From: a virus
Taxonomy: Duplodnaviria; Caudoviricetes
Virus record (IMG/VR): IMGVR_UViG_3300019288_000050
Location: 3,150-67,149 of that record
DNA: 64,000 nucleotides
Strand: one strand, 5' to 3'
The notes under the pieces are model-generated. The model saw only the letters and a list, made by a program, of their open reading frames with translations. It had not been told where the DNA came from and made no database searches. This document shows positions 8,003 through 25,420 of this stretch, in pieces. The position numbers and the translations under genes were made by a program. Position 1 is the stretch's first letter; each line of letters starts with the position of its first letter.

Positions 8003-8105
8003 TATGCTCGGCTACTCCCTCATTCGCACAAAGAAACTTATGGCTATTTACGAGAAAATAGCTATATTTGCACTTGATAAGATAAGACATCAAAATAAAT
8101 TCAAT

Positions 8106-8459: not shown

Positions 8460-8492
8460 TATAAGCATCTTTCATCCGAAAGAAGGTAATCG

Positions 8493-8526
8493 AAGGGCGC
8501 AGGGGCTTGAATCCTTGCGCCCTTTG
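8493..8526. terminator. Hairpin terminator between convergent genes
   Basis: AAGGGCGCAGG / CCTTGCGCCCTT stem. Confidence 0.6.
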
Positions 8527-8533
8527 CTATGCG

Positions 8534-9457
8534 TCAGAATCCCGAAAAATACTCTTTTGCCTCTTGGGGTAGCTCTCGGATGCCGCAGCAGATGTATTTG
8601 GCTGTCATATCCGCGCTACTGTGACCCAAAAAGCGAGAGATTGTGTATAAATCCAAGCCTTTCAGGTATAGATTGGACGCACACGAGCGGCGGGCGGTAT
8701 GGCTCGACACATATTCCCATTTTTCACCCTCGCACTCCTTGCCCGCCTTGAACACCTTGACCTTATCCGTTATCCCGCATTTCTTGCAGATATTGCGTAT
8801 AATGCGGTTGTACGTTGTATCATCAATTGACACGTCCGTGCGGTTGAGTATATACTCCCGGACGATTGGTTTCAGCGGCACAATAGCCTGAATTTTCGTT
8901 TTTACAGACACATATTGCAGACTGTCGCCGTTGATGTTGCTTTCATTAAGTCTTACGGCGTCAGAGTGGCGCATGCCACAGAAAGCGCAGGTCACAAACA
9001 TATTGCGCACATAGCGCTCTCTTTCGTTTTTAGGAGTGTAGTCTATCAGTTTTTGCAGTTCCGACTCTGAAAGAAAAACAGCAGTAGATGTGACTTTCTT
9101 TGGCGTTAACACTTTTGCGTAGCCTCTTGGCAATAACACCTCATCGGCATACAGATTAAGCACCGATTTCAGCTTTGCGGCGTATTGGTTCACGCTGTTA
9201 GGCGACAGACGCTCGCCCATATAATCAATAAACTTTTGCAACCGCACCTTTGTCAGATTCTCCCATGTGGCATCACAAAGGTTTGCAGCCTCGAACATGT
9301 TAAGAATGTTCATATATGCCGGATATTTTTGGCTGAATGCCTCTTTTAGCGTGGTGGGCTGTGGGCTGGTCGGCTGTCCCTCCGTTGACCGAGATGCTTG
9401 TATGTGCGTAGGCTGTATTTGTCTGCCTCGGCTGAATAGCCGGTTAAAGATATTCAT
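8534..9457 (-). CDS. Tyrosine recombinase (phage integrase family)
   Basis: CGMRHSD (catalytic R), KTKI, SSHTARRS (HxxR), LGHSS...TAKY (H/Y). Confidence 0.9.
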   Translation of the reverse strand: MNIFNRLFSRGRQIQPTHIQASRSTEGQPTSPQPTTLKEAFSQKYPAYMNILNMFEAANLCDATWENLTKVRLQKFIDYMGERLSPNSVNQYAAKLKSVLNLYADEVLLPRGYAKVLTPKKVTSTAVFLSESELQKLIDYTPKNERERYVRNMFVTCAFCGMRHSDAVRLNESNINGDSLQYVSVKTKIQAIVPLKPIVREYILNRTDVSIDDTTYNRIIRNICKKCGITDKVKVFKAGKECEGEKWEYVSSHTARRSCASNLYLKGLDLYTISRFLGHSSADMTAKYICCGIRELPQEAKEYFSGF

Positions 9458-9463
9458 ATTTGT

Positions 9464-9616
9464 TTACTTTGAAAGTTTGTTTTGAATCCAGCTTACCAGA
9501 GCGAACACGGCGATACCGACAGGCAGAGCCACGCAGAAGAAGAATGTCAGGAAGCCGGGGCAGGCGCAAATGACGATGAAGATAATGAGGATTGCCCAAA
9601 GGATTATACCAATCAT
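9464..9616 (-). CDS. Small membrane protein (50 aa)
   Basis: MIGIILWAILIIFIVICACPGFLTFFFCVALPVGIAVFALVSW, two hydrophobic segments. Confidence 0.5.
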   Translation of the reverse strand: MIGIILWAILIIFIVICACPGFLTFFFCVALPVGIAVFALVSWIQNKLSK

Positions 9617-9696
9617 AATTTTGAAATGTTTAATTTTACTTTGTTCCCGGCGGCGGTGTCGCTCCGCTGTGGTTCTCCCTCGCCGGGATGGGTGGT

Positions 9697-9894
9697 TTAT
9701 AATGCGATTTCGATGATGTCTAATATGTTGTCCGTCCTCATGCTGTTTACTGAGAGTTGCGCGTATTTTACGCCGTTCTCTTTCATCCATCGTTTTGCAC
9801 GGTTGATGGCTGTTTGCTTGCTGCTGCCATCGGGTATTAACGCACCTAAATCGTCGTAACTCTCATTGAGGAGTTGAAAATAATATCGTTTCAT
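9697..9894 (-). CDS. Hypothetical protein
   Basis: 65 aa ORF in the leftward cluster. Confidence 0.6.
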   Translation of the reverse strand: MKRYYFQLLNESYDDLGALIPDGSSKQTAINRAKRWMKENGVKYAQLSVNSMRTDNILDIIEIAL

Positions 9895-9924
9895 CTTTCC
9901 TACTGTTTAAGCGTTGACAAATAA

Positions 9925-10044
9925 TTACATTGGTATTCCGGCATAATAGCACATCCACATAAATGCAATTACGATGTGCCAGAAGAGAAGCCCGGCGGCA
10001 AGCATGCCGATAATAGCCGCCGTGGCTTTTAGGGTGTGTTTCAT
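9925..10044 (-). CDS. Small membrane peptide (39 aa)
   Basis: MKHTLKATAAIIGMLAAGLLFWHIVIAFMWMCYYAGIPM; start overlaps the stop of the upstream gene. Confidence 0.5.
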   Translation of the reverse strand: MKHTLKATAAIIGMLAAGLLFWHIVIAFMWMCYYAGIPM

Positions 10045-10772
10045 TTGTAAGCCGCCATTTGGTTGTTATATTCGTCTTCCGCGTCAGAGATATACGACCA
10101 AGCCAAATAATTTGCAGCCTCTTTGCGTTCGGTGGCTTTCACTCTGGTGTTATCCTCCATCCATCCGGCGCAATACATTTCGGCGAGTGAGTTGGCAATT
10201 ATTGTACGCATTGCGGCGGATTGCGCAAGCCGTTTGCGGTCGGGCTTAATTCCGCGCTTAATCTTGTTGACAAGCGACAAGATAAGCGGCTGGACATGGC
10301 GGCGGTATATGTTGCCATCATTTTCGGCTGTCAGCACGATGTTAGTTGCAGTGTGTGACAGTTCCGAAAATTCGGGGGCGTTGATTTCGTTTGCGTTCAT
10401 GGTGGAAGGGGTGTTATCGGGGTTTGTGGGTTCGGGTTGTTCAGCCTCTTTGCGCTGTCTGCTGATGTATTCAGCGAGGAAAGCGGCGGCGCAAATCATG
10501 TCGATTTTACGGAGTTTGCGAGACACAAGAGCGGCGGCGCGTTCTGTCAGTTCGTTTGCGGCCTCTTCTGCTGTCATACCTTTGTTGATACCTCTAATAT
10601 AGGGATTTGAGAAATTGCCGGATTGCAGGGCGATAGCCTTTGCGCCCTCTGTCAGTGCTGCAAAGGTGTGGAGCATTGCGGGGTCGCTGTCTTCTGCCAT
10701 TGCAGACATTACGCGGTTATAGGTGTGCTTTGCCATGCCTTTGAGGTTTGAGGGGGTGTTATTTGCTTTCAT
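10041..10772 (-). CDS. Hypothetical protein (two helical domains)
   Basis: 243 aa with a Pro/Asn linker. Confidence 0.6.
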   Translation of the reverse strand: MKANNTPSNLKGMAKHTYNRVMSAMAEDSDPAMLHTFAALTEGAKAIALQSGNFSNPYIRGINKGMTAEEAANELTERAAALVSRKLRKIDMICAAAFLAEYISRQRKEAEQPEPTNPDNTPSTMNANEINAPEFSELSHTATNIVLTAENDGNIYRRHVQPLILSLVNKIKRGIKPDRKRLAQSAAMRTIIANSLAEMYCAGWMEDNTRVKATERKEAANYLAWSYISDAEDEYNNQMAAYK

Positions 10773-10846
10773 CGTGATGGGGTTTTGTGGGTGGGTGTTT
10801 GAGATTGTTTGCCCGGTCTGGTCGGATAGCGCAACCGTGGGAGGCG

Positions 10847-11083
10847 TTAAGCCTTTCCGATAAAGGCGTTAAATGTGCCTTCAAACTGAGTAAATCCAGC
10901 GTCTTTTATCTTCTTAAACTCGGAGTGAGTAACGTGGTAGGTGTAGAGTCCAAACATACCGGGCGTGTCTTTGCGTCCTTGGCTGGAGGTAACGAGATGT
11001 GCAAGCGATACGAATGCGTTCACCTCGATTTTGTTACGCCCTTTGTAGCTCTTTTCGGCGTAAATGATATTATACGTTTTCAT
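10847..11083 (-). CDS. Hypothetical protein
   Basis: First gene after the minus-strand promoter TACCTTTG at 11192-11199. Confidence 0.6.
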   Translation of the reverse strand: MKTYNIIYAEKSYKGRNKIEVNAFVSLAHLVTSSQGRKDTPGMFGLYTYHVTHSEFKKIKDAGFTQFEGTFNAFIGKA

Positions 11084-11435
11084 AATTGGGAATCTTAATT
11101 TATCTTTGTGGTACTTAATTTATCTTTGCCCCGGTCAAGTCTGTGAAGATGAACGGCCGGGGCTTTTCGTTTACCGTTCATTTCTGTATTACAAAGGTAC
11201 GGAAAATTTACGACATACCAAATATTTAAGCGGTTTATTTTCAATTACTTAAACCCAATAATTAACCTTTTCGACGCACCCAAATAAATCACACCGTATC
11301 ACTTAAATACAGCCCCGCCACACCACGCAAACACACCATTTGCCAAAATCCCCCGAAATGACTATCTTTGCAACAGAGAGCCTCAGAGCACCCGAAACAA
11401 GCATTACCAATAAAGTTAAAAAGAGTTAACATAAT

Positions 11436-12005
11436 ATGCAGTTTAGCAAGAGAGTTTCGGAGCTTTCCCGCCTGTATGGCATCGAGCCGAAAGACGTACT
11501 TTTCGCCATGCTCGCAACATGTCCCGGCGTGTCAACCGTGGAAGCCTTTGCAGTGATCTACAAACCAACCTCCACAACCAACAACGCAATATCAACCCGA
11601 GCAAGTCAATACATCGGACAACGCCCCGGACTTCGCAAGCTCATCGACGAGCTAAACGCACAGCAGTTCGACAACCCAGAGCAACCCACGCCGAGGAGAG
11701 GAAGACCACGCAAAGACCCACCGACAGACAGCCCTACTGAGCAGGATACGCCACGGCTGGACTATACCGATAAGGATGCAGTGTTACAGGAGCTGGCGAG
11801 GATTGCGGAACGCAGTGAAAAAGAATCCGATAAATTGGCGGCAATCCGTGAAATTAGCGCGCTCCAGAGAATGAAGCAGGAGGCAGCAGTGGAGGACGAA
11901 AAGCGGGTAACGTTTTGGATACCCTTAAACTACGAACGTGCCGAGGAACTAAGGCAATATTTAGCCCGATACTATGCCGAAAAAGACGGAAACACAGAGA
12001 GTTAG
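11436..12005 (+). CDS. Probable terminase small subunit
   Basis: N-terminal HTH-like region, then DKDAVLQELARIAE...DKLAAIREI helices typical of TerS; promoter TATCTTTG 11363-11370. Confidence 0.55.
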   Translation: MQFSKRVSELSRLYGIEPKDVLFAMLATCPGVSTVEAFAVIYKPTSTTNNAISTRASQYIGQRPGLRKLIDELNAQQFDNPEQPTPRRGRPRKDPPTDSPTEQDTPRLDYTDKDAVLQELARIAERSEKESDKLAAIREISALQRMKQEAAVEDEKRVTFWIPLNYERAEELRQYLARYYAEKDGNTES

Positions 12006-12306
12006 CCGCCTATTCTCCTGCCTTATTCGTATAATACGGCATTATCCACCGTTTAGCCGGTGCCAGGAGGGGAGGCGGGGCACCCCCTTTGAGGTCTGAA
12101 AATTTTGGCATGTCACCCCCTCTCGAAATTTTTATTTTAAAATTTTTCATTTTTCAGATTTGGCTGTCCTGTCATCGGGTCAGCCATTGATTTTATGTTA
12201 TACAACATATTTGTCAATCAGAGCCTTGCGGTTTCATTCGAAGCAGAGAAAACGGTTGTTGGAACTACTTGATTTGCAGACCAAACTTCTGATTTCCGAT
12301 AAAATG

Positions 12307-12561
12307 TGTAGGGTTTTAAGAGTAAATGTTGGAAAAAATTGAAGTTTGTGTAGATTTAACTACTTGATATATTGTTCATTGAATATTTTGTGGAACATAT
12401 GTAGGTATATTTTGTACACATAGAAGAAAATAGACATATATAAAGAGGCATATAAATAGAGAATATCGGCTGAAAACTTTTCGACCCCTTGATGCTCCAC
12501 ACCCTACACAGCATATGATTAACAACGAGTTAACTCTACATTTTATCCTTATTTAGCTACA
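12307..12561. repeat. Inverted array of TGTAG/CTACA motifs in AT-rich non-coding DNA (candidate origin)
   Basis: TGTAG at 12307, 12349, 12400; CTACA at 12504, 12536, 12557. Confidence 0.4.
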
Positions 12562-12826
12562 TAGACCATGCAGGGAGGCAGATAGGGGTAAAATAGGTTT
12601 CCACCACAACATCAGTATGTTGGGTGTGTTTTCGGGGGAAACGTGAGGGGTTGGTAAATATGTGTTTTTGAGTGTTTGGAGCATGGTTTTATATCCTATC
12701 GGGTTATTGCGGGCGCAGTTTCTCGCCATCCCTTATGCTGCCGGAGGTAGTAAAAACAAGTGCGATTTATGTTTATTTTCTCTAATTTATTTGCATTGTA
12801 TTAGAAAATAACTACCTTTGCGATGT

Positions 12827-12900
12827 GAAACGGACACACCGAGCCAGCTACTCGGTGGAAGGGCGAGCTGATGGCCTTTGTCCGTTTCTCTTTTCACTTT
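12827..12900 (+). ncRNA. Three-way-junction RNA with complementary loops (leader or sRNA)
   Basis: P1 12827-36/12879-88 (10 bp), P2 12837-43/12851-57 (7 bp), P3 12859-64/12873-78; loop CAGCT pairs with loop AGCTG; begins just after TACCTTTG (12813-12820) and ends in a T-rich tract. Confidence 0.6.
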
Positions 12901-12927
12901 TTCATCAGCGTAACTATAACATCAGCA

Positions 12928-13614
12928 ATGACAATAAAAACAAGCAATCAGATTCGGCTAATTCATGGTGACTGCATGGACTATATGCGGTCGTTGCCCG
13001 ACAATGCCTTTGATTTGGCTATTGTTGACCCGCCTTATGGAATTGGTGTCGATAAAGACATGAGGCGAAAAGCTAATACAAAAGCCGGGAAAAGTCTTGC
13101 AAAAAGAGCTGATTATCATTCCTCAGATTGGGACAAATGCGCCCCATCTGAAGTTTATTTTACAGAGTTAAGGCGTGTCAGTCTCAATCAAATTGTGTGG
13201 GGTGCGAACCACTTTATATCCCGACTTCCGTTTGATAGCTCTTGCTGGATTGTATGGGATAAAGACAACGGTGCCAATGATTTTGCGGACTGCGAATTGG
13301 CTTGGACCTCATTCAGAAAGGCTGTGCGCAAATTCAAGTGGCGTTGGCACGGAATGTTGCAGGAAGATATGAAGCACAAAGAAGTGCGCATACATCCCAC
13401 ACAGAAACCTGTTGCACTCTACAAATGGCTATTGGAGCGATATGCCAAAGAGGGTGATAAAATACTTGACACGCACCTCGGAAGCGGCAGTTCGGCAATA
13501 GCGGCTTACGACCTCGGATTCGAGTTTACGGGCATAGAGATTGACGACAAGTATTATGTCGATGCTCTCAGGCGTTTTGAATCTCATAAAATTCAACAAA
13601 AACTATACTTCTGA
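12928..13614 (+). CDS. DNA adenine methyltransferase (beta class)
   Basis: DPPY, HPTQKP, LDTHLGSGS; likely start MTIKT. Confidence 0.92.
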   Translation: MTIKTSNQIRLIHGDCMDYMRSLPDNAFDLAIVDPPYGIGVDKDMRRKANTKAGKSLAKRADYHSSDWDKCAPSEVYFTELRRVSLNQIVWGANHFISRLPFDSSCWIVWDKDNGANDFADCELAWTSFRKAVRKFKWRWHGMLQEDMKHKEVRIHPTQKPVALYKWLLERYAKEGDKILDTHLGSGSSAIAAYDLGFEFTGIEIDDKYYVDALRRFESHKIQQKLYF

Positions 13615-13616
13615 TT

Positions 13617-14096
13617 ATGTTTACACATCCTTGTTATATACAACGTAACACAAATCAACTTCGTTCGGAATTAGAACGGCTGAATTATCAGCTGTTTGCA
13701 AGTTATGATGCTGACGCAGACTGCATATATTGTTTTGACGGGTATTATTGGCCAAAGCATCTTTCTGACTGCATAAAGAGTGCAGTGTCCGTTAAAAGAG
13801 ACCTTGGAATTAATGTCGTGTTTTGCGGTGACAATAAAGATGCTTTCTTGTCTATTGCCGCGCTTTGCGATGACAGAGATATTTATCAAAAGTTTGTGAT
13901 AGAAGAAGACGGAGAGTATTATCCCGACTATGAACGCACCTCGGATTCTTACCCGGTATATTTCTCACAGGGGGATATGGTAGACTTTGATGACGCTGCC
14001 TTGGTACATTGCAGGCATCACAAGGCATCAGCTATGGAAATCATAGAATACTATGGTTTGGATAAAATTCAACCCACTGACCCCTCCAACCCTTAA
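13617..14096 (+). CDS. Hypothetical protein
   Basis: 159 aa in operon. Confidence 0.6.
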   Translation: MFTHPCYIQRNTNQLRSELERLNYQLFASYDADADCIYCFDGYYWPKHLSDCIKSAVSVKRDLGINVVFCGDNKDAFLSIAALCDDRDIYQKFVIEEDGEYYPDYERTSDSYPVYFSQGDMVDFDDAALVHCRHHKASAMEIIEYYGLDKIQPTDPSNP

Positions 14097-14107
14097 ACAT
14101 CAGCGAT

Positions 14108-14950
14108 ATGACAGAGGCATTACAGAAAAAGGTTGACTTCGCTATCAAGTTGCTCCGCTCGATACCGCAGGACAATGGGCCGATTGAGGTCTCATATTCC
14201 GGCGGTAAGGACTCTGACGTGATACTGGAGCTTGCGAAGATGGCAGGTATTCCGTATCGGGCTATCTACAAGAATACTACTTGCGATCCGCCAGGCACAA
14301 TAAAGCATTGCAAAGAAAATGGCGTTGAGGTGTTCGCTCCGACAATCAACTTCTTCGACTTGGTGAAGAAGGCCGGGATGCCAACTCGGTTTCGCCGTAT
14401 ATGCTGTTCTTATCTAAAAGAGTATAAAGTTCTCGACCGTGCAATTCAAGGCATACGCAGACACAAAAGCGTCAAAAGAAAAAAGCGATATAAAGAGCCG
14501 GAAGTGTGCCGTAGTTATCCGAAAGGGCAAAAGGCACGAATATATCTGCCTATACTTGAATGGACTGACGAAGATGTAGCACAGTTCATTGCTGAGCGCG
14601 GTATTAAATGCCATCCGCTCTACTATGACGAGCAAGGTAATTTCCACGTTGAGCGCAGATTGGGCTGCATAGGCTGTCCGCTTAGGAGCGATATTGGCAA
14701 ATCCGACTTTGTGAAATACCCGAAGTTTCTGAAAAGGCTAATTGCGTCTACTCAGATTTTCATTGACACGCACCCAGCTACCAAAACGGCAAAAGATTAT
14801 GGCAACGCATACAACCGAGTCTTTCGAGCCTTATTTTGCAACTCAACAGAACAATACAAATCGTTGACAACAGGCGGCATGTTCCCCGAAACCGCCATTG
14901 ACACCAAGAAATTTTTAGAGGATTACTTCAAAATAGACCTTACTATATGA
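14108..14950 (+). CDS. PAPS reductase family protein
   Basis: SYSGGKDS PP-loop, GIRRHKS, PILEWT, RLGCIGCP. Confidence 0.88.
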   Translation: MTEALQKKVDFAIKLLRSIPQDNGPIEVSYSGGKDSDVILELAKMAGIPYRAIYKNTTCDPPGTIKHCKENGVEVFAPTINFFDLVKKAGMPTRFRRICCSYLKEYKVLDRAIQGIRRHKSVKRKKRYKEPEVCRSYPKGQKARIYLPILEWTDEDVAQFIAERGIKCHPLYYDEQGNFHVERRLGCIGCPLRSDIGKSDFVKYPKFLKRLIASTQIFIDTHPATKTAKDYGNAYNRVFRALFCNSTEQYKSLTTGGMFPETAIDTKKFLEDYFKIDLTI

Positions 14951-15291
14951 CAACCGAAGAAAAAGCAAAGGCGTATGCCGAGAAAGCATATTATCCTGCA
15001 CCCGAATATGGGTGGTATGAGAGCGACCATGAAGCAATGACGGATGTGTTAGAGCAAGCCTACCTCACCGGAGCCACCGAAGCCCTCACCTCGCAGTGGA
15101 AAGACCCGGAGGTGGAGCTTCCGGAGGATGATAGACAGGTGCTTGTTGAGACCGATTGTGAGGATAAGGAGCTACGCCATGCAATCTCCTATTTCCTTGC
15201 AGGAGCATGGCATTTCCCGGATGATTGGTATTATGACTGCCGAGTGTTGAAATGGATGTCAATCCCGCCGCTGAAAGGAGGTGACGCATGA
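14947..15291 (+). CDS. DUF551-like protein
   Basis: WKDPEVELPEDDRQVLV...KWMSIP. Confidence 0.6.
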   Translation: MTTEEKAKAYAEKAYYPAPEYGWYESDHEAMTDVLEQAYLTGATEALTSQWKDPEVELPEDDRQVLVETDCEDKELRHAISYFLAGAWHFPDDWYYDCRVLKWMSIPPLKGGDA

Positions 15292-15641
15292 AAGCAATAC
15301 GAAAATCAGACGGCAAGGTGATTGAGGTAGAGCCTCAAAGATTTATGGAGCAGGACGGCTCGATGTATGCGCCCTCCGACCTTGACTTCAACGTGGAGGG
15401 AGCTGAGCAGACTGAGAGTGCCGTGACAAGCGGATGGGTGGCGAGAGACGAAGACGGCTTTATCAGTCTTTTCAACGACAAGCCGACAAGGGACTATTGC
15501 GACAAGAACGATATTCCTTACGGATTTTGGGATGAAGCCAACGGACATCATCTTGAACTTCCGATAACATCTTTCCCCTCCCTCACATGGCAATCCGACC
15601 CTCTGGAAGTAACCATCACCATTAAACCGAAGAAGCAATGA
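15288..15641 (+). CDS. Hypothetical protein
   Basis: Coupled ORF; WVARDEDG motif common in phage hypotheticals. Confidence 0.6.
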   Translation: MKAIRKSDGKVIEVEPQRFMEQDGSMYAPSDLDFNVEGAEQTESAVTSGWVARDEDGFISLFNDKPTRDYCDKNDIPYGFWDEANGHHLELPITSFPSLTWQSDPLEVTITIKPKKQ

Positions 15642-16000
15642 AAGCATATCGCAAATGGCTGGAATCATGTAAACAGGTAAATCTCCCTGCCATTACCACC
15701 GATACAGCGGCACGACTTATGGCTGTGCTGTATGAGTATGGCAACAACGAGGGGTTTACCTACAATCAGAAGTTTCTTGCCGACAAGGAGTATATCCAAG
15801 ACAAGTTCGGACTGCGTGAAATGAATACTCCTGAGCCTCATTTCCATGCGTTGCTGAAAGCATACATCAAAGAGTTGCAGGATTATCAAAAGGAACACAG
15901 AAACGACACGACAGACAAACAGCATCCACATAGGTCAATGGCTCCAGACTGGGCGCCGCAATTACTGAAAGAGCGTTATAACATGAAATTTATAGGATAA
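15638..16000 (+). CDS. Hypothetical protein
   Basis: Coupled ORF. Confidence 0.55.
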   Translation: MKAYRKWLESCKQVNLPAITTDTAARLMAVLYEYGNNEGFTYNQKFLADKEYIQDKFGLREMNTPEPHFHALLKAYIKELQDYQKEHRNDTTDKQHPHRSMAPDWAPQLLKERYNMKFIG

Positions 16001-16001
16001 C

Positions 16002-16868
16002 ATGATTTACGGATATTTAAGAGTCAGTTCAGACGAGCAGGATGTCAACTCCCAAAAGCAGGGTGTTGAACAGTTCGCTAAAGATAAGGGCTGGAGTATT
16101 GACAAATACATTACAGACGAGGGCGTGAGCGGCGGCAAAGACCCCGACAAACGTAACCTTGGACCGCTCCTAAAACTTGTCAATAAGGAAGATGTTATCA
16201 TCTGTTCCGAGATAAGCCGCCTTGGTCGCGACCTTTACATGGTGATGGATATACTTCATTTCTGCATGGAGCGAGGGTGTATCATTCACACGGTCAAAGA
16301 CCGCTTTACTCTTGGCGACGATATTCAGAGTAAGGTTCTTGCGTTTGCTTTTGGATTGTCAGCAGAGATAGAGCGTCAGATGATACGCCAACGCACGAAA
16401 GAGGGCTTACGGCTCAGAGTAAAGCAGGGTATATTATTGGGTAGACCTCCAATGACTCAACTCTCTGAGCCTATTACCGACCTATCCGAGAAGAAAAATC
16501 AGGTGATAGAGCAATTCAATTGGGGTGTACCAGAACGCAGACTCGCTCTGAATTTTGGAGTTGACCGCAATACAATAGCACGATGGCTACACCGATGGGG
16601 CGTTAAACACTCCAAATATATAGAGAAACTTGACAAAGGTCAGAATGAGAAGCCGACATCATATAAAGATGGAAATTTTGAGGTTGTAGAGAATATTGAC
16701 AAGGAGAAGCTCCGTCAACTGATAGAGTGTGATTTGACTATCCCTCAGATTGCCGAGCAGTTTGCCGAATACTCCTACGACCAGATATACGATACAATTT
16801 ACTGCGATAAAAAGCTTAATCCTTTGTATCGCAAGCATGGACAACTTAAAATCAAGAAGACAATATGA
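16002..16868 (+). CDS. Mpi-like serine recombinase/DNA invertase with extended C-terminal HTH region
   Basis: YGYLRVSS catalytic Ser, SEISRLGR, LGDDIQSKVLAFAFGLSAEIER. Confidence 0.88.
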   Translation: MIYGYLRVSSDEQDVNSQKQGVEQFAKDKGWSIDKYITDEGVSGGKDPDKRNLGPLLKLVNKEDVIICSEISRLGRDLYMVMDILHFCMERGCIIHTVKDRFTLGDDIQSKVLAFAFGLSAEIERQMIRQRTKEGLRLRVKQGILLGRPPMTQLSEPITDLSEKKNQVIEQFNWGVPERRLALNFGVDRNTIARWLHRWGVKHSKYIEKLDKGQNEKPTSYKDGNFEVVENIDKEKLRQLIECDLTIPQIAEQFAEYSYDQIYDTIYCDKKLNPLYRKHGQLKIKKTI

Positions 16869-17098
16869 AACACCTTACAACCATCCTCGCCGCCGTCCTC
16901 TGCGCCGTGTGCCTGAGCGGATGCGAGGGACAAAAGACACAAGAGCAGATTGATACTTATATGGAGTCGCATATAACCGAGTTCAATTATAAAGGGCATA
17001 AGTTTCTACTCTACAAACAAATGTATGCGAAAGGCGGCGTAGGCGGCATCACCCACGACCCCGACTGCCCCTGCCATAAGGAAGGAGGTGAGGAATGA
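16865..17098 (+). CDS. Small lipoprotein
   Basis: Signal peptide with lipobox LSGC. Confidence 0.6.
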   Translation: MKHLTTILAAVLCAVCLSGCEGQKTQEQIDTYMESHITEFNYKGHKFLLYKQMYAKGGVGGITHDPDCPCHKEGGEE

Positions 17099-17283
17099 GC
17101 AAGCCGTTGACAAAATATGACTGCCCCTTCTACATTTCAAGAGGCGGTCATTGTGAAAAGACTCGATTCAGCATCCAAGGCTACATGAGTCAAATTTATG
17201 GTTGCAACCACGCAAAGGATATATCCAAGTGCATGTGGGTGAAAAAACTAAGAGAAGAAAGTCCATTTTTTAATGACAAATGA
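17095..17283 (+). CDS. Cys-rich hypothetical protein
   Basis: Coupled 62 aa ORF. Confidence 0.45.
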   Translation: MSKPLTKYDCPFYISRGGHCEKTRFSIQGYMSQIYGCNHAKDISKCMWVKKLREESPFFNDK

Positions 17284-17284
17284 T

Positions 17285-17707
17285 ATGAACCGCACAATCA
17301 AATTCAGAGGCAAACGCCTTGACAACGGCGAGTGGGTGTATGGCGAACAATATACCCCAAGATTATTCGATAGTAAGAGAGGCTATTCCGGAGAATATGC
17401 GCCTTGTATTTTCTGTGACGAGGGAGGCGTTCCTGTTATCCCGGAAAGCATAGGCCAGTTCACCGGACTGCACGACAAGAACGGCAAGGAAATCTATGAG
17501 GGGGATATTCTCTTATTAAACACTACCGGATTGCGCGAACATTGCATTGTAGAGTGGAACAGTGAAAAAGCAGGATGGTGTATTTCTTTAAAAGTAGCTG
17601 GTAAGTGGGCTCTTGGTGTGCGTACTCTTGGGGCTTGGATGAATGAAGCCGATTTTTGTATTCAAGGCAACCGTTTTGACAACCCCGAACTGCTAAACGA
17701 GAAGTGA
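17285..17707 (+). CDS. YopX family protein
   Basis: IKFRGKRLDNGEWVYG, GQFTGLHDKNGKEIYEGDI, GNRFDNPELL. Confidence 0.9.
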   Translation: MNRTIKFRGKRLDNGEWVYGEQYTPRLFDSKRGYSGEYAPCIFCDEGGVPVIPESIGQFTGLHDKNGKEIYEGDILLLNTTGLREHCIVEWNSEKAGWCISLKVAGKWALGVRTLGAWMNEADFCIQGNRFDNPELLNEK

Positions 17708-17708
17708 G

Positions 17709-17966
17709 ATGAATAAAATAAAAACAGAATATAAAAAGGCAATAAAAGCACATGCCGATTTTACAACTCAACTTCAATTATTGGAAAAAGAGTTCGTTTT
17801 TACAGGCTTTGGCGGCTGCGAACCTCATGTAGATTACGTTCATAACGACATTTTTCTTGCTTGGGAAGATGATAAAGAGGGTATCATTCACGAACTCTCA
17901 ATAGAAGAAGCAATTGATGAAATGTCCAAAAACGGATGTATTACCCCTGATTGTTTTACGATATGA
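17709..17966 (+). CDS. Hypothetical protein
   Basis: Coupled ORF; resembles 21127-21393 in size and layout. Confidence 0.55.
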   Translation: MNKIKTEYKKAIKAHADFTTQLQLLEKEFVFTGFGGCEPHVDYVHNDIFLAWEDDKEGIIHELSIEEAIDEMSKNGCITPDCFTI

Positions 17967-18331
17967 AAACACAACTGACCGCCGAGGAATCGGCAAAGCT
18001 CATAGAGCTTGGAGTAAGCCCCGAAAGGGCGAGTGAAAGTAATTCATCCGTTGCTTATGGCAATGGAGCAAGAGGGATTATGAAAGTTCCCGAAACGCCT
18101 ATCTTCACTCTCGCCGACATTCTCGACATCCTGCCGAAAGAGATTAATGCATTCGGAATTCCCGCAAGATTACAGATGTATAATCATCCAGCAGAATATT
18201 GGATTGCATCGTATGTTACCTATGATGGTGGAACGCTAACTTATCAAAATCCATGTTCAGCAGAAAAAGAACTCATCGACGCTCTCTACTCGCTGCTTGT
18301 GTGGTGTCTGGAGAAAGGGTATGTGAAATAA
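17963..18331 (+). CDS. Hypothetical protein
   Basis: QLTAEESAKLIELGV...FTLADILDILP pattern typical of Bacteroidetes phage hypotheticals. Confidence 0.6.
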   Translation: MKTQLTAEESAKLIELGVSPERASESNSSVAYGNGARGIMKVPETPIFTLADILDILPKEINAFGIPARLQMYNHPAEYWIASYVTYDGGTLTYQNPCSAEKELIDALYSLLVWCLEKGYVK

Positions 18332-18828
18332 GGAGAAAAGGAAATGAAAAATCCATTCAGAACGAGATACAGAGCACGCAAGTATATGCTCGATGCTGTT
18401 CACCGTGTCGAATACAAGCGTTGGTGGCAACGCAAGTGGCGTACACATGGCATCTACGCTACCAAAGAAGAAGCTGTACTTGCTCTTAAAAGATTGAAAC
18501 AATGAAAAAGAAATACCGCAGAGCCGTGTGCAAGTGCCTTGTATGGCTCATAAAACCTTTTTGGTGGATATTCATGGTGATGGCTTCCCCTTTCGTGGTT
18601 ACATGGATGTGCCTGCAAGATTGGGAGTGTTGGCTATGTAAGAAATTCAGAACTTATGACTATGACCCCGACTGAACGGCCGCAGGAGTGCAAGTATCAT
18701 AAGAAATATGCAAGGAGGTTTTCCTATAATCTTTGCGCTAAATGTGGTTTGCCGATGAAATTATGTAGCTTCTATAACAATCCAACAAATTGCCCCGACT
18801 TCACCCCGAAAATAAAAGAGAAATAAAA

Positions 18829-18999
18829 ATGAAAGTAAAAGAACTAATCAAGGCTCTGATAGAGCTACCGCAGGACGCAGAAGTGTTCTTTCTGCCCGGC
18901 GACAGTGGCATGTATCAAATCAGCACTGTTAAAGCAACTACAGCCACAAATGACGAAGTTAAGGAAATCACCGGCAAAGAATTTATTGTGCTAACATAA
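18829..18999 (+). CDS. Hypothetical protein
   Basis: MKVKELIKALIELPQDAEV. Confidence 0.6.
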   Translation: MKVKELIKALIELPQDAEVFFLPGDSGMYQISTVKATTATNDEVKEITGKEFIVLT

Positions 19000-19044
19000 A
19001 AAAGGGAGCGGGTAGGACGCTCCCAAGGCGGAATATCTTACTGT

Positions 19045-19170
19045 TTACGCCGCCACCCAAAAGCAAAATACTTTGCCATGTTTGGGATAGATTGTTCTAC
19101 CATTCTTACGAATATAACGAGCGAAAACGAGTTTGAACTCCTTGCCATTTACCACTTTTGAAGTTTGCAT
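19045..19170 (-). CDS. Small basic protein (41 aa) in its own transcription unit
   Basis: MQTSKVVNGKEFKLVFARYIRKNGRTIYPKHGKVFCFWVAA; promoter TATCTTTG 19334-19341 (minus), terminator GGGAGCG/CGCTCCC 19004-19024. Confidence 0.55.
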   Translation of the reverse strand: MQTSKVVNGKEFKLVFARYIRKNGRTIYPKHGKVFCFWVAA

Positions 19171-19398
19171 GCACAACACCTCCTTTCTGACTGTAACCGG
19201 GTCACGGCTTGCCATTGTTGTAGGATGGGCAAGAAAAAACCCCGGCATCCTACCTCCGGGGTTAAGTCCTTTTTATGGACGGGCAAGGAGGGCATTGCGG
19301 AGATGTTGTGCAAGCTTTCCTCAAAGTGGTTTGCAAAGATAACAAAGGAAACCAAAAGAAAACAAAAATATTAACATTAAACAACACTTTTAACAAAT

Positions 19399-19818
19399 AT
19401 GACTACCGAAGACTACGTTTCCTACCCCCTCGCCCTCGCGCTGAAGAAGCATGGGTTTGATGAGCCGTGCCGAGATTTCTATTGGCCTTCTGACGGCACA
19501 TTCAAACATACTGATGCACCTGTGCATAAGAACAGTGAGCATTGTACGACAATGGTTGCGGCTCCGACTTTATGGCAAACTCAGAAGTGGTTGAGAGAGG
19601 AATGGGGAATACACGTAAACGTATGTATCTATTCCGACTATTCCACTGACGCAGATGGTAAAGTTTGTGACAGATGGGATTTTTGGGGATTTGATTTGTA
19701 TGCAGTTAGCGGAGGAGACATGATGGAGGAAGGCGATGGCGAGTATGACACCTACGAATCCGCCCTCTCAGCCGGAATCGCTGCTGCGTTGGAACTGATT
19801 GAAAAGAAAGGAGAGTGA
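19399..19818 (+). CDS. Hypothetical protein
   Basis: EDYVSYPLALALKKHGFDEPC...APTLWQTQKWLRE. Confidence 0.65.
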   Translation: MTTEDYVSYPLALALKKHGFDEPCRDFYWPSDGTFKHTDAPVHKNSEHCTTMVAAPTLWQTQKWLREEWGIHVNVCIYSDYSTDADGKVCDRWDFWGFDLYAVSGGDMMEEGDGEYDTYESALSAGIAAALELIEKKGE

Positions 19819-19819
19819 T

Positions 19820-20089
19820 ATGACACAAGAACAATTCAATACCGCTATCAAGCTCCACCATAGGCTTGAAGCACTGGCAAAAGTCAAGGAAGAAATCGCA
19901 AATACCAAGGAACATCGTCTTTGGTATGCGAAAAGATATGACCCCATGTGCGGCTCTACAAAATGGGACACAGTTAGTGAATGTGCAATGCGCGACATAT
20001 CAGACATCCTTGACCGTCACGACCAAATGATTCGTCAAGAAATAGACGAGGAAATAGCGAAAATTACAAAACAAATTGAAGAACTATGA
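19820..20089 (+). CDS. Hypothetical protein
   Basis: Coupled ORF. Confidence 0.55.
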   Translation: MTQEQFNTAIKLHHRLEALAKVKEEIANTKEHRLWYAKRYDPMCGSTKWDTVSECAMRDISDILDRHDQMIRQEIDEEIAKITKQIEEL

Positions 20090-20358
20090 CCAAGACGATA
20101 GAAGAAGCTGCGAGAAACTATGCGAAAGATAAAGTTGGAGATTACGACTATCTCGGAGTCGAATATGAGGCTTACCTTGATGGCAACGAAGATGCGGTAA
20201 AATGGGTAATGTCGCTCCCTCTCGCCTCGCGTCTGACCGCCGCCGAGAAAGAGAGGGTGAGAAAAATGTATTGGCAAGCCGCAATGGATTGGGTAGGGGT
20301 ATATGATGTGCTTGAAGAAATCTTCGGCAATGAGTTTTTCAGGGAGGGCGAGGTATGA
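20086..20358 (+). CDS. Hypothetical protein
   Basis: Coupled ORF. Confidence 0.55.
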   Translation: MTKTIEEAARNYAKDKVGDYDYLGVEYEAYLDGNEDAVKWVMSLPLASRLTAAEKERVRKMYWQAAMDWVGVYDVLEEIFGNEFFREGEV

Positions 20359-21125
20359 TAGTGCAACGTCAAGTGTGGCACGACTACACCAAGTATCTGA
20401 TTGCCGACAACTACGGCTCCGTGCAGTTGGAACTATATGATAAAGAACAGAACTTCGGTGGCACTGCGTTCATTTATGGACTATATGTCTGCCCCTCTTA
20501 TAGAGGTAACCATCTCGGAGATGCGCTACTTGACCAAGCGGAGTTTTGTGCAAAACACGCAGGACATAAAGCGGTATTCCTTGAATGGGAGGAAAAGGAT
20601 TCCCCAAAATGGGTACTTGAATGGTATCTGCGCTTAGGCTACAAAGAAGTCAAATCTGACAAGCAGGGGTGCTTGCTTAAAAAGGAATTGAAACAACAAG
20701 CAAAAAGACGTACAACTACCTCGGCGGATGGTTTGCCGAGGGGATATACGAAAACATTAAAAAGAAGTGATATGGCAATAGACATTTTATCTCTCCGCAT
20801 AGGCTCGCATATCCTTGTCAATGGCAAGCGTGAGCGAGTGCGAGGCTTAGACGAGGACAACGGACTGATAATCCGCTTTCCTGCGGAATATGTGCTTGCA
20901 AGCGAGGTAGAGCCAATCGCAATCACGCCCGAACTGCTGAAAGAGTTGGGGTTTGAGAATGGGCGTGTAGGAATCTGGTGGCATTGGTGGAAAGATGGAT
21001 TCCACCTACAGCACAGAGATGAAAGTGAGTATTGGCATTTCCATGGCGATATTGGATTTAGATACTTCCACGAGCTTGAAAGCCTCTACTATATGATTTA
21101 CGAAACCGAACTAATCCCCGACTGA
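20355..21125 (+). CDS. GNAT acetyltransferase fused to a second phage domain
   Basis: GLYVCPSYRGNHLGDALL (motif A) and WYLRLGY; unrelated C-terminal half from MAIDILS. Confidence 0.7.
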   Translation: MIVQRQVWHDYTKYLIADNYGSVQLELYDKEQNFGGTAFIYGLYVCPSYRGNHLGDALLDQAEFCAKHAGHKAVFLEWEEKDSPKWVLEWYLRLGYKEVKSDKQGCLLKKELKQQAKRRTTTSADGLPRGYTKTLKRSDMAIDILSLRIGSHILVNGKRERVRGLDEDNGLIIRFPAEYVLASEVEPIAITPELLKELGFENGRVGIWWHWWKDGFHLQHRDESEYWHFHGDIGFRYFHELESLYYMIYETELIPD

Positions 21126-21126
21126 T

Positions 21127-21393
21127 ATGGTAACACCTCGCAAAATTCCCTCATACGAGGAACTTAAAGCTGCTTTTACCGAAATAAAAGCACTACAAAG
21201 TCATATCCACGATTGCGCATCAGTAATTGAAAGAAACCTTGTATTCTGTGGCTTCCCTATGTATGACGAGCCAAAGGTTATCAGTGATGGCTATGCCGTG
21301 AAGCTCCGCTACAAGGATGTAGTGATTGATGACCGTGCCATTTTGACCGCAATAGCAAACAGAGGTTTCATAACCCCTTATGATTTCAGTTGA
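21127..21393 (+). CDS. Hypothetical protein
   Basis: Coupled ORF. Confidence 0.5.
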   Translation: MVTPRKIPSYEELKAAFTEIKALQSHIHDCASVIERNLVFCGFPMYDEPKVISDGYAVKLRYKDVVIDDRAILTAIANRGFITPYDFS

Positions 21394-21599
21394 CATGGAG
21401 AGCAAGGAGCGCGAAGCATATCGAAAAAGGTGTAAGCACTATGGTGTGGATGGAGTGTGTTGGAAGCTATCTCATAGCCTCGGACAATGGCACGGCATAG
21501 CATTTGTGCCTCATTGCGGACATATTACAAGTCGTTGCACTTCCGTCTGCAACTGCGCGAGAATGAAAAGGTATGATAAAATGGATAAACAAGATTGAT

Positions 21600-22121
21600 A
21601 TGAGCAAAATATACTTAGGCATAGACCCCGGCTCTGACGGGTATCTCGCCGTGATTGATAACGGTGAGTATCGCTTTTTGCCGATTGAGGACACTCCGAT
21701 GCTGGAGATTGGCAAGTTTGTGGGCGAGTTCAGAGATACGCAATGCGTGGCAGTTTTAGAGGATGTTCACTCTGTCTTTGGTTCGTCTGCGCAGGGAACT
21801 TTTAACTTCGGTCTTTCCAAAGGATTTCTCCTTGGGTTGCTGATTGCGCACAGAATCCCCTATGTGCTTGTCGCTCCCAAAGATTGGCAGAGCGGAGTGT
21901 GGATAAATGCCGATAAGGAATATACCACGCAGAAACAGAAACTCAAAAACGGTGGCGAGAAAACTGTGCGCAAGGTTGACACCAAACAGACTTCATACAA
22001 TGCGGCTCTGCGTCTTTTCCCCGATGTGGACTTTCGCAAGAGCGCACGTTGCACCAAACCGCATGACGGCAAGGTTGACGCTTTGTTGATGGCTGAATAC
22101 GGAAGGAGGATGAATTTATGA
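21600..22121 (+). CDS. RuvC-like Holliday junction resolvase
   Basis: IYLGIDPG, LEDV, C-terminal DGKVDALL. Confidence 0.85.
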   Translation: MSKIYLGIDPGSDGYLAVIDNGEYRFLPIEDTPMLEIGKFVGEFRDTQCVAVLEDVHSVFGSSAQGTFNFGLSKGFLLGLLIAHRIPYVLVAPKDWQSGVWINADKEYTTQKQKLKNGGEKTVRKVDTKQTSYNAALRLFPDVDFRKSARCTKPHDGKVDALLMAEYGRRMNL

Positions 22122-22477
22122 GCGAACAAAAGAAATTTAACATAGGCGACAGAGTGCGCAGTAAATTTTATGGGATTGTCGGCACAGTGATTGATGTAGA
22201 TACTGACGGCTACATAATAAATCCCGACCATGTAGAGGAAATGTGGATAGGCGAAGATGATGCCGAGGCATACGACCGCAGGACCGACTTCCTTACTCGC
22301 CTATCCGAACTTATGAGGGAGTTTGATGCGGAAATAGAATATCATATCGGGAGTGATGAAAAATCAGATTATAGCGAATACTATGCTATTACGATTGGGC
22401 GTGAACGATTGACTTACGATAATTGCGAGGGTGCTTCGCTCACCGCCGACAACTTAATGGACTACGACAAGGAATGA
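22118..22477 (+). CDS. Hypothetical protein
   Basis: KFNIGDRVR start; coupled ORF. Confidence 0.55.
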   Translation: MSEQKKFNIGDRVRSKFYGIVGTVIDVDTDGYIINPDHVEEMWIGEDDAEAYDRRTDFLTRLSELMREFDAEIEYHIGSDEKSDYSEYYAITIGRERLTYDNCEGASLTADNLMDYDKE

Positions 22478-22479
22478 GT

Positions 22480-22707
22480 ATGGCAAAGAAGATAATCAAA
22501 AAAGGAAACATACCCACTGTGACAAAAACTTGCGAGGTTTGTGGCTGTGAGTTTAGTTTTGAGTGTGGAGATGTTGAGTATAATTCTATTTGCAGTTGTG
22601 AGGGTTTTGTGGGTAGAAAATATTATACTTATTGCCCTTGCTGCAAAAAGAGAATAATAGTCACAGAAGATGATTCCATAAAACTGAAATTGTATCATTT
22701 TGACTAA
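22480..22707 (+). CDS. Zinc-ribbon protein
   Basis: CEVC...CPCC. Confidence 0.55.
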   Translation: MAKKIIKKGNIPTVTKTCEVCGCEFSFECGDVEYNSICSCEGFVGRKYYTYCPCCKKRIIVTEDDSIKLKLYHFD

Positions 22708-24503
22708 TGGCAAAAGATTACATAGACAGAATCGCAGGGAGCATCTACAATCTCATGAAAGGTGCGGAACTGGAGAAAGGTTTGGAGGAGAAGCGTCCGG
22801 CTGACCGCATAGGCGTGTTTCAGGAACTTCTGATAAAGGCTATCAAGAAGTCAACACTATGTTGCTTCAATGGCAGACCGTTCTATTTCAACGGTCGTAT
22901 CTACGTTCAGCTCGGCAAGGATTCGTGGGACGCTTTCAACTCGCTTGTACTTAGAGTTGCCGACAAGTGTATGCTTCCTCCGGGCGACAAGACCCGGCTG
23001 GAGGGTGTCAAGAAGGTGTGCCGGGGCGAAGTGTCGCTCAAAACCCTCGAACCCGACAGCTCGATAATCGTGCTTAATAACGGAGTGCTTGACTTGGAGA
23101 GCAACACTTTCCACAAGTTCAACAAGAAATTCAAGCAGGTCACGCAGATGGATTTCGACTACGACCCGAATGCCGTGCCTAACGTGTGGACTGACTACTT
23201 CCTTGATGCCGTACTCGACCAATCGGCTCAGAAAGTGTTGCAGGAGTTTATGGGTGCGATATTCATTGACCGCCGGAAAGTGAAGATTGAGAAGATGCTT
23301 ATACTCTACGGTGCCGGAAGCAACGGCAAGAGTGTTATCCAATCCACCCTAATAGGGCTGTTGGGCGAGGATAATGTAAAGACACTCGCAATCTCCGACC
23401 TCATAAGCGGCTCGGAGCGTAAGCAGAACATCGCATCTATCAACGGCAAGCGACTCAACTATTGCTCCGAGATTCAGACGAGGGAGTTCGGGCAGAACGC
23501 AGACGCACTGAAAGCCTTGATAAGCGGAGAGCCGTTTGAGGTGCGATTGGTCTACATCAACAACTTCACCGCACGTAATATCCCCCTGCTGATGGCAAAC
23601 GCCAACCGCATACCCTACATAAAGGATTTCAGCCACGGACTGTCACGCCGTCTGATAATACTCCCTTTTGAGCGGGTGATTGAGGAAAAGAATCAGAACA
23701 AACGCCTTGCGAAAGAGTTGCAGAAAGAATACTCCGGCATACTCAACTGGATATTGGCGGGACGGCAGAGGCTTATCGCCAACGGCTATCAGTTCTCCGT
23801 GCCTCAACGCTTGCAGGACTTGGTGGAGGAATACCAAGCCGAAAGCTCCACGGTGTTGCAGTTCATGAAAGCCAAGGATTACAACCGCTCCATACTCGAC
23901 ATGGAGCATGAGATACGTTGGCTCAAAGCACAGCAACTTTTCTTTGCCTACAACAAGTGGTGTGCCGAGAACGAGATTCGACCCGAAACCGAAAAGCGTT
24001 TCTACATGACGCTGAAAGAAGCCGGATATAGCAACAAGCGGACGCAGACAGGCAATCTCTACGGGGTCTATCAGCTCAACACCCGACCTATAAAGGAGGA
24101 GTACAAGAAACGTAACGAGAACAACCTTATTGACGGCATGGACAACCTCGCCCATTGGACGGGTGTCAGCCGTCAGACAATAGAGAAGATGGTGCGGTGC
24201 AATCTCTTGGAGGGTTGCTACACCAAAGAGGGGCGCAGATATTGGTTCATGCTCGACAAGTGCCGTGCGGCTATCAAGAAGTTCATGCGCAAGGACAAGC
24301 GCAAGAGTGACGGACGTGTGCCGATGGAGCTGAAAGCCGACCGCAGAGCCTTTAACAAGGACATGAAAGAGCGTGGATTGCCATACCGCAAGGCTGAGGC
24401 TCCCGACCCCCATGCCATCGGCATAATCTATGTGGCGGACGAGTTCAACTATCAACTCGATAAAGACAACTATAAGGACTTTATAAAATTCAAAGAGAAA
24501 TAA
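22707..24503 (+). CDS. P4/D5-type SF3 helicase (primase-associated) with C-terminal HTH
   Basis: GAGSNGKS Walker A, NYCSE Walker B, LLMANAN, RRLIILPF. Confidence 0.88.
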   Translation: MAKDYIDRIAGSIYNLMKGAELEKGLEEKRPADRIGVFQELLIKAIKKSTLCCFNGRPFYFNGRIYVQLGKDSWDAFNSLVLRVADKCMLPPGDKTRLEGVKKVCRGEVSLKTLEPDSSIIVLNNGVLDLESNTFHKFNKKFKQVTQMDFDYDPNAVPNVWTDYFLDAVLDQSAQKVLQEFMGAIFIDRRKVKIEKMLILYGAGSNGKSVIQSTLIGLLGEDNVKTLAISDLISGSERKQNIASINGKRLNYCSEIQTREFGQNADALKALISGEPFEVRLVYINNFTARNIPLLMANANRIPYIKDFSHGLSRRLIILPFERVIEEKNQNKRLAKELQKEYSGILNWILAGRQRLIANGYQFSVPQRLQDLVEEYQAESSTVLQFMKAKDYNRSILDMEHEIRWLKAQQLFFAYNKWCAENEIRPETEKRFYMTLKEAGYSNKRTQTGNLYGVYQLNTRPIKEEYKKRNENNLIDGMDNLAHWTGVSRQTIEKMVRCNLLEGCYTKEGRRYWFMLDKCRAAIKKFMRKDKRKSDGRVPMELKADRRAFNKDMKERGLPYRKAEAPDPHAIGIIYVADEFNYQLDKDNYKDFIKFKEK

Positions 24504-25064: not shown

Positions 25065-25111
25065 TTGCACTTACTATTGTTTCTTTCCTATAAAATAACT
25101 ATCTTTGCATC

Positions 25112-25256: not shown

Positions 25257-25278
25257 GTTCCCCTTTTTAAGAAATCAT

Positions 25279-25410: not shown

Positions 25411-25420
25411 AAATCCTAAG

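Follow-up and report, generated by a model that had tools for sequence, protein, structure and literature searches.

A long-form relative of the invertase Mpi in a Bacteroidales provirus, its clade and its possible substrates

On which DNA does a phage-borne relative of the chromosomal invertase Mpi act, when its own phage offers no recognizable invertible segment? The question is raised by a serine recombinase gene at positions 16002..16868 (plus strand) of a 64,000-nucleotide stretch of Caudoviricetes DNA. The whole of this stretch, called the window below, makes up nearly all of the 67,149-nucleotide IMG/VR provirus record IMGVR_UViG_3300019288_000050 (positions 3,150 to 67,149), which CheckV rates as 96% complete. 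The original prediction for the locus, made from the letters of the DNA, took the protein for a phage-encoded Mpi-like invertase that may rewire the phase variation of host capsules. We are highly confident of the identity of the protein and of its place in a large clade of phage and prophage recombinases. As to what it does, we tentatively favor, at a probability of roughly one in three, recombination at one site in each genome of the replicating phage DNA.

The recombinase and its C-terminal extension

The open reading frame (ORF) at 16002..16868 was confirmed as predicted: it specifies 288 amino acids (aa), holds LGDDIQSKVLAFAFGLSAEIER within it and is an intact small serine recombinase gene. 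Pfam assigns residues 2-143 to Resolvase (E 2.1e-32), and in the catalytic domain (residues 1-143, 16002..16430, plus strand) the residues R7, S9, R73, R76, E122, E124 and R125 stand in alignment columns that are invariant among the long proteins of this kind, shorter viral relatives and chromosomal Mpi proteins. S9 aligns with chain residue 10 of gamma-delta resolvase, which we take to be the nucleophile. The solved structures nearest by sequence are gamma-delta and Tn3 resolvases and Gin (E 1e-10 to 1e-12), and the fold of the catalytic domain matches gamma-delta/Tn3 resolvase at the top, together with Sin and Gin. Matches to CcrA/B/C and XisF are limited to the catalytic domain (23-42 bits), and unlike the large serine integrases, which have recombinase and zinc-ribbon domains and at least 400 aa, the protein carries only Resolvase and HTH_23 among Pfam domains on its 288 aa.

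Its top match in NCBIfam is the Mpi family NF009949 ("master DNA invertase") at 227.5 bits (228.3 in the genome-level search), against 41.6 bits for the runner-up family, with residues 1-203 aligned on positions 1-200 of the 203 in the profile. PHROG 125 ("DNA invertase") likewise matches residues 1-232 on profile positions 21-239 of 254 (E 9.4e-39). NF009949 is an equivalog family with a curated cut-off of 272 bits, which the protein does not reach. The claim that the catalytic domain closely follows Mpi therefore stands in part: the 22-residue motif given above is letter for letter the same in L124, a chromosomal Mpi-family protein of a metagenome-assembled genome (MAG) of Muribaculaceae that scores 343 bits, but the protein is not a Mpi equivalog. 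Over 196 residues it is 50% identical to a Muribaculaceae chromosomal Mpi. Behind the catalytic domain lies a helix-turn-helix (HTH) of Mpi type (model helices 162-198, 16485..16595, plus strand), in which the Pfam HTH_23 match at residues 175-199 is borderline (24.8 bits against a cut-off of 24.6), and its putative recognition helix, VDRNTIARWL, aligns with VDRNTLARFI in the Muribaculaceae protein.

Members of the Mpi family consist of a catalytic domain and one C-terminal HTH on about 200 aa, an architecture that the window protein exceeds by residues 204-288 (16611..16865, plus strand). This family-specific extension has no counterpart in aligned Mpi proteins and is conserved among the related long proteins, termed long forms below, in which a variable charged linker is followed by a conserved segment of about 50 residues. 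An AlphaFold model (mean predicted local distance difference test, pLDDT, 77.5) places the catalytic domain, the HTH helices, a low-confidence linker and a helical bundle at residues 234-285, for which pLDDT is 83-90 over residues 231-280. The extra C-terminal region announced by the original prediction is thus real, but of the two HTH-like segments placed in it one (175-199) belongs to the part shared with Mpi, and in place of the second the model shows the single bundle, for which residues 225-288 returned weak HTH-type leads only in the ESM Atlas (scores 0.83-0.86). A Pfam search of the extension gave no match. Among 1.84 billion representative proteins its last 64 residues found 41 matches, all at or near the C-terminal end, and the 7 of these that were inspected were all long forms, their fragments or chimeras. 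In order, the protein thus comprises a catalytic domain, an HTH of Mpi type and a helical C-terminal domain specific to the family.

A phage clade with a small companion gene

That the recombinase is encoded by a phage, as predicted, agrees with the genes of the window, which include terminase-like, portal, DNA methyltransferase, PAPS-reductase-like (phosphoadenosine phosphosulfate), Holliday-junction resolvase, primase and endolysin genes, two giant ORFs and a tyrosine integrase (8534-9457, minus strand). At least five DNA studies of mouse-gut metagenomes, along with two metatranscriptome studies, contain the same DNA, and the closest relatives of the recombinase gene lie in MAGs mostly labelled Muribaculaceae. 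A protein search returned at least 7,999 candidates at E <=0.001, the best 120 of which have 258-295 aa and are 69-99% identical to the query. Loci of the family were fetched from MAGs (43) and IMG/VR (78), and all five of the other long-form loci that are annotated are phage. No long form was found among 50,697 GenBank phage records: the 274 records that match all stay below 60% identity, and the only two matches that cover at least 80% of the protein are from E. coli phage at 27.8% identity. Likewise, none of the 93 matching records of the plasmid database PLSDB covers at least 80% of the protein.

The phylogeny was inferred by a quick IQ-TREE run on 63 rows and 214 columns, a short search without bootstrap and with several long branches, that took in every fourth long form (27 of the 102 fetched), all short forms, 18 chromosomal proteins and three outgroups. 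All 27 sampled long forms fall in one clade, with a Shimodaira-Hasegawa-like approximate likelihood ratio (SH-aLRT) of 100. This clade is sister (SH-aLRT 88) to a clade of short viral proteins (L112-L123), and both lie within a Mpi-like group of 58 rows (95) that is distant from the Gin-like, P2-like and Tn21 proteins. The outcome is that foreseen by the original prediction, in that the recombinase clusters with Mpi and its Bacteroidales relatives and not with Gin, P2-type invertases or Tn21 resolvase; it does not cluster with plain resolvases. The long forms nevertheless stay outside the sets that contain nine over-cut-off chromosomal proteins and do not group with chromosomal Mpi orthologues, whereas the protein of the cultured Bacteroides fragilis phage B124-14 does group with chromosomal Mpi proteins (94). 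The scores of the NF009949 hidden Markov model (HMM) agree with the tree: 218-235 bits for eight other long forms, 275-278 for the short viral clade (two members tested), 343 for B124-14 and 318-346 for chromosomal Mpi. On this evidence the recombinase is a member of a large clade confined to Bacteroidales phages and prophages, within the Mpi-like group and distinct from chromosomal Mpi. Mpi-like genes are very common in uncultured Bacteroidales phages, and GenBank already has a phage-borne gene of the Mpi family, that of B124-14, annotated "DNA invertase". In the literature that we searched, there appears to be no description of a long-form clade with such an added domain and such an accessory gene.

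This accessory gene is the second hallmark of the long forms. In a survey of the neighbors at 119 loci, window included (102 long-form, 17 short-form), one small gene on the same strand adjoins the long form, while the other neighbors vary; it comes in two types, A of about 87 aa and B of about 121 aa. It is directly adjacent at 80 of the 102 long-form loci (type A lies upstream at 33 and downstream at 11, type B upstream at 12 and downstream at 24) and near at 12 more, where it lies a few hundred bases off or was masked by the ORF-start rule; it was not found at the other 10, of which L036, L028, L043 and L032 are at or near a contig end. The short-form loci have neither type (0/17), and the two types never occur together at any of the 119 loci. 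In the window the companion is of type B, a 120-aa ORF at 15638..16000 (plus strand) that ends 1 nucleotide before the recombinase start codon. No relationship between A and B is detectable by hhalign (probability 0.3), and Pfam and PHROG searches assigned neither to a family. Type B is modeled confidently as an all-alpha protein (pLDDT 86.5, predicted template modeling score 0.80), for which fold searches gave no clear match (Foldseek best E 2.1; VIA-align best Z 5.2, to a helical protein). Fused partner-recombinase proteins were absent from the longer proteins searched, which is weak evidence.

In a decayed copy of the module formed by the two genes, at G155:C31:41623-42806 (L044, L154, L155), all that is left of the recombinase is residues 1-52 and 256-286, which flank the partner gene in reversed order. 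Further remnants and chimeras occur among the representative proteins.

The early operon, the search for a substrate and possible roles

The recombinase gene is tightly packed between its neighbors, with no flanking non-coding DNA: the type B gene ends just before it, and the following ORF overlaps it by 4 nucleotides. Bacteroidetes-type promoters have the consensus TTTG-N17-23-TAnnTTTG. This pattern has 12 matches in the window against 1.29 expected, 9 of them outside called genes, and one (12790..12820, plus strand) sits a short way ahead of the gene that opens the operon (12871). This motif most likely drives the operon that includes the recombinase gene, to judge from its position; no further plus-strand match was found between the two, and the first strong plus-strand terminator-like hairpin (at least 13 pairs) is at 25418. 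Because of the tight junctions and the positions of promoter and terminator, we regard the recombinase gene as an internal member of an early/replication operon next to the immunity region and not as an independent moron. The "middle genes" among which the original prediction had placed it are thus better described as an early/replication operon, beside the immunity region and the primase/helicase genes. By PHROG annotation, the window and four of the five annotated long-form loci share one order, in which a minus-strand integrase and/or repressor is followed by plus-strand early genes, the recombinase with or without its partner, and primase/helicase genes; the fifth, L008, has its recombinase gene after the helicase-primase, with a tyrosine integrase 1 kb downstream.

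Three observations on this region may be set down here. The 77-aa ORF that overlaps the recombinase stop (16865-17098, plus strand) has by eye a lipoprotein-like signal peptide, a hydrophobic stretch and then LSGC, and has no PHROG or Pfam match. Within the plus-strand operon, a 67-aa ORF on the minus strand (19045-19248) shows a moron-like layout, with two minus-strand Bacteroidetes-type promoter motifs (19334-19397) and a strong minus-strand terminator (19024-19004). In the stretch that separates the early operon from the lysogeny genes of the minus strand, GGTGTGGAGCAT occurs three times in both orientations (10665-10686, 12482-12503 and ~12673-12684) in an operator-like arrangement.

A search of the window and of the whole record found no inverted repeats beyond chance. 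Our own script detected in the window, for pairs within 12 kb, a maximum of 18 nucleotides with two mismatches. In the whole 67,149-nucleotide record there are three inverted pairs of at least 19 nucleotides at 85% or more, two of them tRNA-like, against 0-3 in ten mononucleotide shuffles. The same kind of script, as a positive control, recovers repeats of 57-123 nucleotides beside genes of the sister clade. Contigs from Logan for four DNA runs of four studies contain no strand-changing joint over 6001-26000 (20 of the 64 kb), although rare variants are hidden in contigs. Three of the runs give single colinear contigs over this range with 0-1 differences. In the fourth (X7) the contigs break at 16067-16096, inside the conserved 5' end of the recombinase gene, and 16067-18017 is deeper, which we attribute to a second phage in the sample that shares 16067-18017; the break thus coincides with a mosaic boundary within the gene. 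The prediction that no invertible segment flanks the gene was borne out by both the chance-level repeats and the colinear contigs, and without an inverted-repeat substrate in its own genome the recombinase is not a cis switch of the Gin/Cin type.

Several candidate sites were considered and rejected. The inverted repeat 10665-10686 / 12482-12503 (19/22 nucleotides) is of a kind of which about one is expected by chance by our estimate, and the contigs of four studies are colinear across it. The putative Mpi repeat motif ARACGTWCGT has no exact occurrence in the window and 7 with one mismatch, where 11.6 are expected. The direct repeat 14948-14971 / 60053-60076 (23/24 nucleotides, 45 kb apart) probably reflects a shared Glu/Lys-rich peptide; its copies are at the start of the ORF at 14947 and inside a 2166-aa ORF. 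Most long-form loci lack strong inverted repeats within 10 kb on either side, and many of the short-spaced inverted repeats of the other long-form phages are arrays of 8-9-nucleotide iteron-like units that differ from phage to phage, probably replication origins and not crossover sites. These arrays lie 3-10 kb from the recombinase gene, often after the primase gene, as inverted arrays of tandem units with 100-300 bp between the arrays (for example L034 17541-17779, L071 8438-8669, L085 10075-10333 and L104 6839-7173).

The short viral proteins of the sister clade (IMG/VR, L112-L123) are likewise phage-encoded, but have 215 aa, lack both extension and partner and score above the Mpi cut-off. 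At five of their 12 loci (L117, L119, L120, L122, L123) inverted repeats of 57-123 nucleotides, 0.9-1.8 kb apart, lie directly downstream of the invertase gene (11149-11232 / 12135-12218 in L117) and bracket the 5' ends of two opposed genes. Pfam and PHROG searches of these opposed genes gave no match; from an N-terminal motif they are presumably tail-fibre-like. This layout is a classical cis gene-swapping switch of uncultured phages. Because the short clade works in cis at 275-278 bits, neither likeness to Mpi nor a score above the Mpi cut-off implies action in trans. The dyad CCAAAC-N8-GTTTGG of the sister clade was also tried as a site, and is at chance level in the window and present at 2 of 156 loci.

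What, then, would the long form recombine? The reading that we favor is a reaction at a single site per genome of the phage's own replicating DNA, a resolvase-like or Cre/lox-like step by which dimers or terminally redundant DNA would be converted to monomer circles, for example ahead of integration by the phage tyrosine integrase, with the extra DNA-binding-like domain and the accessory protein shaping the synapse such that only that reaction is allowed. We arrive at it because the gene holds a conserved place among replication genes, in temperate phages as in B124-14, because it would be expressed in the lytic phase and because no repeated site is found; with one site in each genome, neither inverted repeats nor inversion joints would be expected, just as observed. 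Resolvases such as gamma-delta/Tn3 and Sin, with one site per replicon, would account for the absent repeats in the same way, and the recombinase resembles them in its top solved-structure matches and in standing beside replication genes. It differs from them in that it groups phylogenetically with invertases and that no res site with subsites was found beside the gene. Cre of phage P1 is an analogue in function only, being a tyrosine recombinase.

A number of points weigh against this reading. Neither a res-like nor a lox-like site was found, and the gene has no non-coding DNA at its flanks to hold one. The dereplicated flanks of the module (74 upstream, 78 downstream) have no DNA motif or k-mer in common, and the motif search there returned only the first and last codons of the gene itself, although divergent sites elsewhere would escape such a search. 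The relatives whose substrate can be read or is known, namely the short viral sister clade and chromosomal Mpi, are all invertases. The partner type switches between A and B at least 10 times on the recombinase tree, and the partner is therefore not a strictly co-evolving subunit. Temperate phages are not known to depend on a resolvase, and the clustering with replication genes is circumstantial.

Action in trans on the host, possible but in our view unlikely, is the alternative closest to the original prediction: the enzyme, expressed early, would bind Mpi-type inverted repeats in the host chromosome and flip promoter invertons of capsule genes, other surface genes or phase-variable defence genes in the infected or newly lysogenised cell, with a possible directional bias from the extra domain and the partner. 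In B. fragilis the master serine DNA invertase Mpi reportedly acts in trans on 13 target regions, dispersed promoter segments with a common inverted repeat. The window protein resembles Mpi in its best family match over the whole profile, in about 50% identity to Bacteroidales chromosomal members, in an identical E-helix motif and a near-identical recognition helix, and in the lack of an adjacent substrate. The identity, the recognition helix, the absent phage inverton and the place in the Mpi-like group speak for such action. It is set apart from Mpi by its score under the cut-off, its separate phage-only clade, 85 extra C-terminal residues and the accessory neighbor, and whereas Mpi is a conserved chromosomal gene, the recombinase gene lies in a phage early operon. 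Co-transcription with lytic early genes, in place of an independent moron, leaves trans action with no selective rationale for an early lytic gene, and the sister clade, which acts in cis in spite of passing the Mpi cut-off, further weakens the argument from likeness. The putative repeat motif of Mpi shows no enrichment in the window, a result that says nothing about sites in the host.

A further point for trans action is B124-14, whose ORF65 "DNA invertase" (NC_016770, YP_005102530; L162, 44660-45313) is, like the window gene, a phage-borne Mpi relative in an early replication/recombination module, between a nuclease gene and the genes of a replication initiator and a Holliday-junction resolvase, with no inverted repeat above chance in the 47-kb phage genome. 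Homologues 70-74% identical to its product were found in 6 of the 41 genomes sampled from the genus of G001. The product is unlike the window protein, with which it shares 46-47% identity, in being a true member of the Mpi family (343 bits, 217 aa) that has no extension and, in the annotation, no type A or B neighbor.

The host side gives a mixed answer. In MAGs with a long-form phage, the long form (218-235 bits) is separate from any chromosomal Mpi, and a chromosomal Mpi above the cut-off was found in 2 of the first four such MAGs (a third reached 267 bits), in 0 of the next five, in 2 of the following five and in 2 of the last five. The total of 6/19 exceeds the 9/151 of an order-wide Bacteroidales sample and would favor trans action, but the comparison is confounded by taxonomy. 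The 13 of 19 host MAGs without an over-cut-off Mpi would argue against trans action, yet these MAGs are incomplete, and the figure cuts weakly both ways. Eight chromosomal Mpi genes have no repeat in common among the inverted repeats found within 1.5 kb of them, and no Mpi target could therefore be defined for Muribaculaceae. In six pairs of phage and host Mpi proteins the recognition helices are loosely alike in a manner that follows host lineage, in a small sample confounded by it, which does not help the trans reading. Our literature searches yielded no phage-encoded invertase that acts on host invertons, and the portions consulted of four articles make no mention of a phage-encoded Mpi-like enzyme (PMC8375218, PMC12118408, PMC12068327, PMC12823448).

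A role as accessory or alternative enzyme of integration and excision, with or in place of the tyrosine integrase and with the small neighbor as a directionality-type factor, would suit the position of the gene near the integrase/immunity region in several phages, including L008 with its integrase just downstream, and the small adjacent gene does recall directionality factors. We nonetheless consider it very improbable: a tyrosine integrase or repressor module of its own is present in each annotated phage in which the region is seen, the recombinase gene is not at a prophage end and lacks the domains of large serine integrases, and types A and B are related neither to each other nor to any known family. 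Gin/Cin/Pin/Hin invertases share with the window protein the small serine recombinase fold and a phage origin, but they are only 28-29% identical to it, form an outgroup in the tree and have genes that adjoin their own inverted-repeat-flanked segment (L149, L151), of which there is none here. A cis invertase acting at low frequency on a cryptic phage segment, with short degenerate sites or outside 6001-26000, is in our view also very improbable, in spite of the long repeats beside the sister-clade genes, the loss of rare variants from contigs and the coverage of 20 of 64 kb, given that the inverted pairs of the record are within the shuffle range and two of the three are tRNA-like, that most long-form loci have no strong inverted repeat while many of the exceptions are distant iteron-like arrays, and that the sister-clade dyad stays at chance level in the window. 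These four readings leave part of the probability unassigned.

Other features of the window and biological meaning

Away from the recombinase, a TROVE-domain (Ro60/Rsr-like) protein is encoded at 25206-26882 (plus strand; Pfam PF05731, E 9.5e-18; PHROG 850), with a listed TTG start that is probably too far upstream. A YrlA-type Y-RNA-like match at 25293-25403 (plus strand) covers the 5' region of this gene (30.2 bits, E 1.8e-4, below the gathering threshold of 69), and tRNA-like repeats lie near it at 25123-25190 and 25282-25340, so that the 25-kb region looks, from these matches, like a phage Ro/Y-RNA module. The G+C content rises to 64-68% at 30000-36000, from about 46% elsewhere, inside the giant ORF 27546-35195 (2549 aa), which has PHROG tail and unknown-function matches. 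Two tRNA-like genes were found with Rfam on the minus strand, at 53307-53376 and 52624-52737 (34.4 and 31 bits); ARAGORN lists neither, and the second is unusually long at 114 nucleotides.

Phase variation of capsule and other surface structures is the main known phage escape of gut Bacteroidales (PMC8375218, PMC12118408, PMC12068327), and an enzyme that is related to the driver of these switches but carried by a phage is for this reason an obvious candidate for a counter-move. That gut Bacteroidales phages carry Mpi-type recombinases for a hit-and-run reprogramming of host phase variation, made from the early promoter upon infection and with flipping directed by the C-terminal domain and the partner, is a proposal that we regard as doubtful. 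If it were true, the phage would select the surface state passed on to cells that survive or become lysogens, and B124-14 would be the first testable case, a cultured phage that offers a direct test of the action of a phage Mpi-family enzyme on host switches. If the recombinase instead serves the replication of phage DNA, as we favor, the long forms would be site-specific recombinases that combine an unusual additional domain with an accessory protein, of interest for the study and engineering of serine recombinases.

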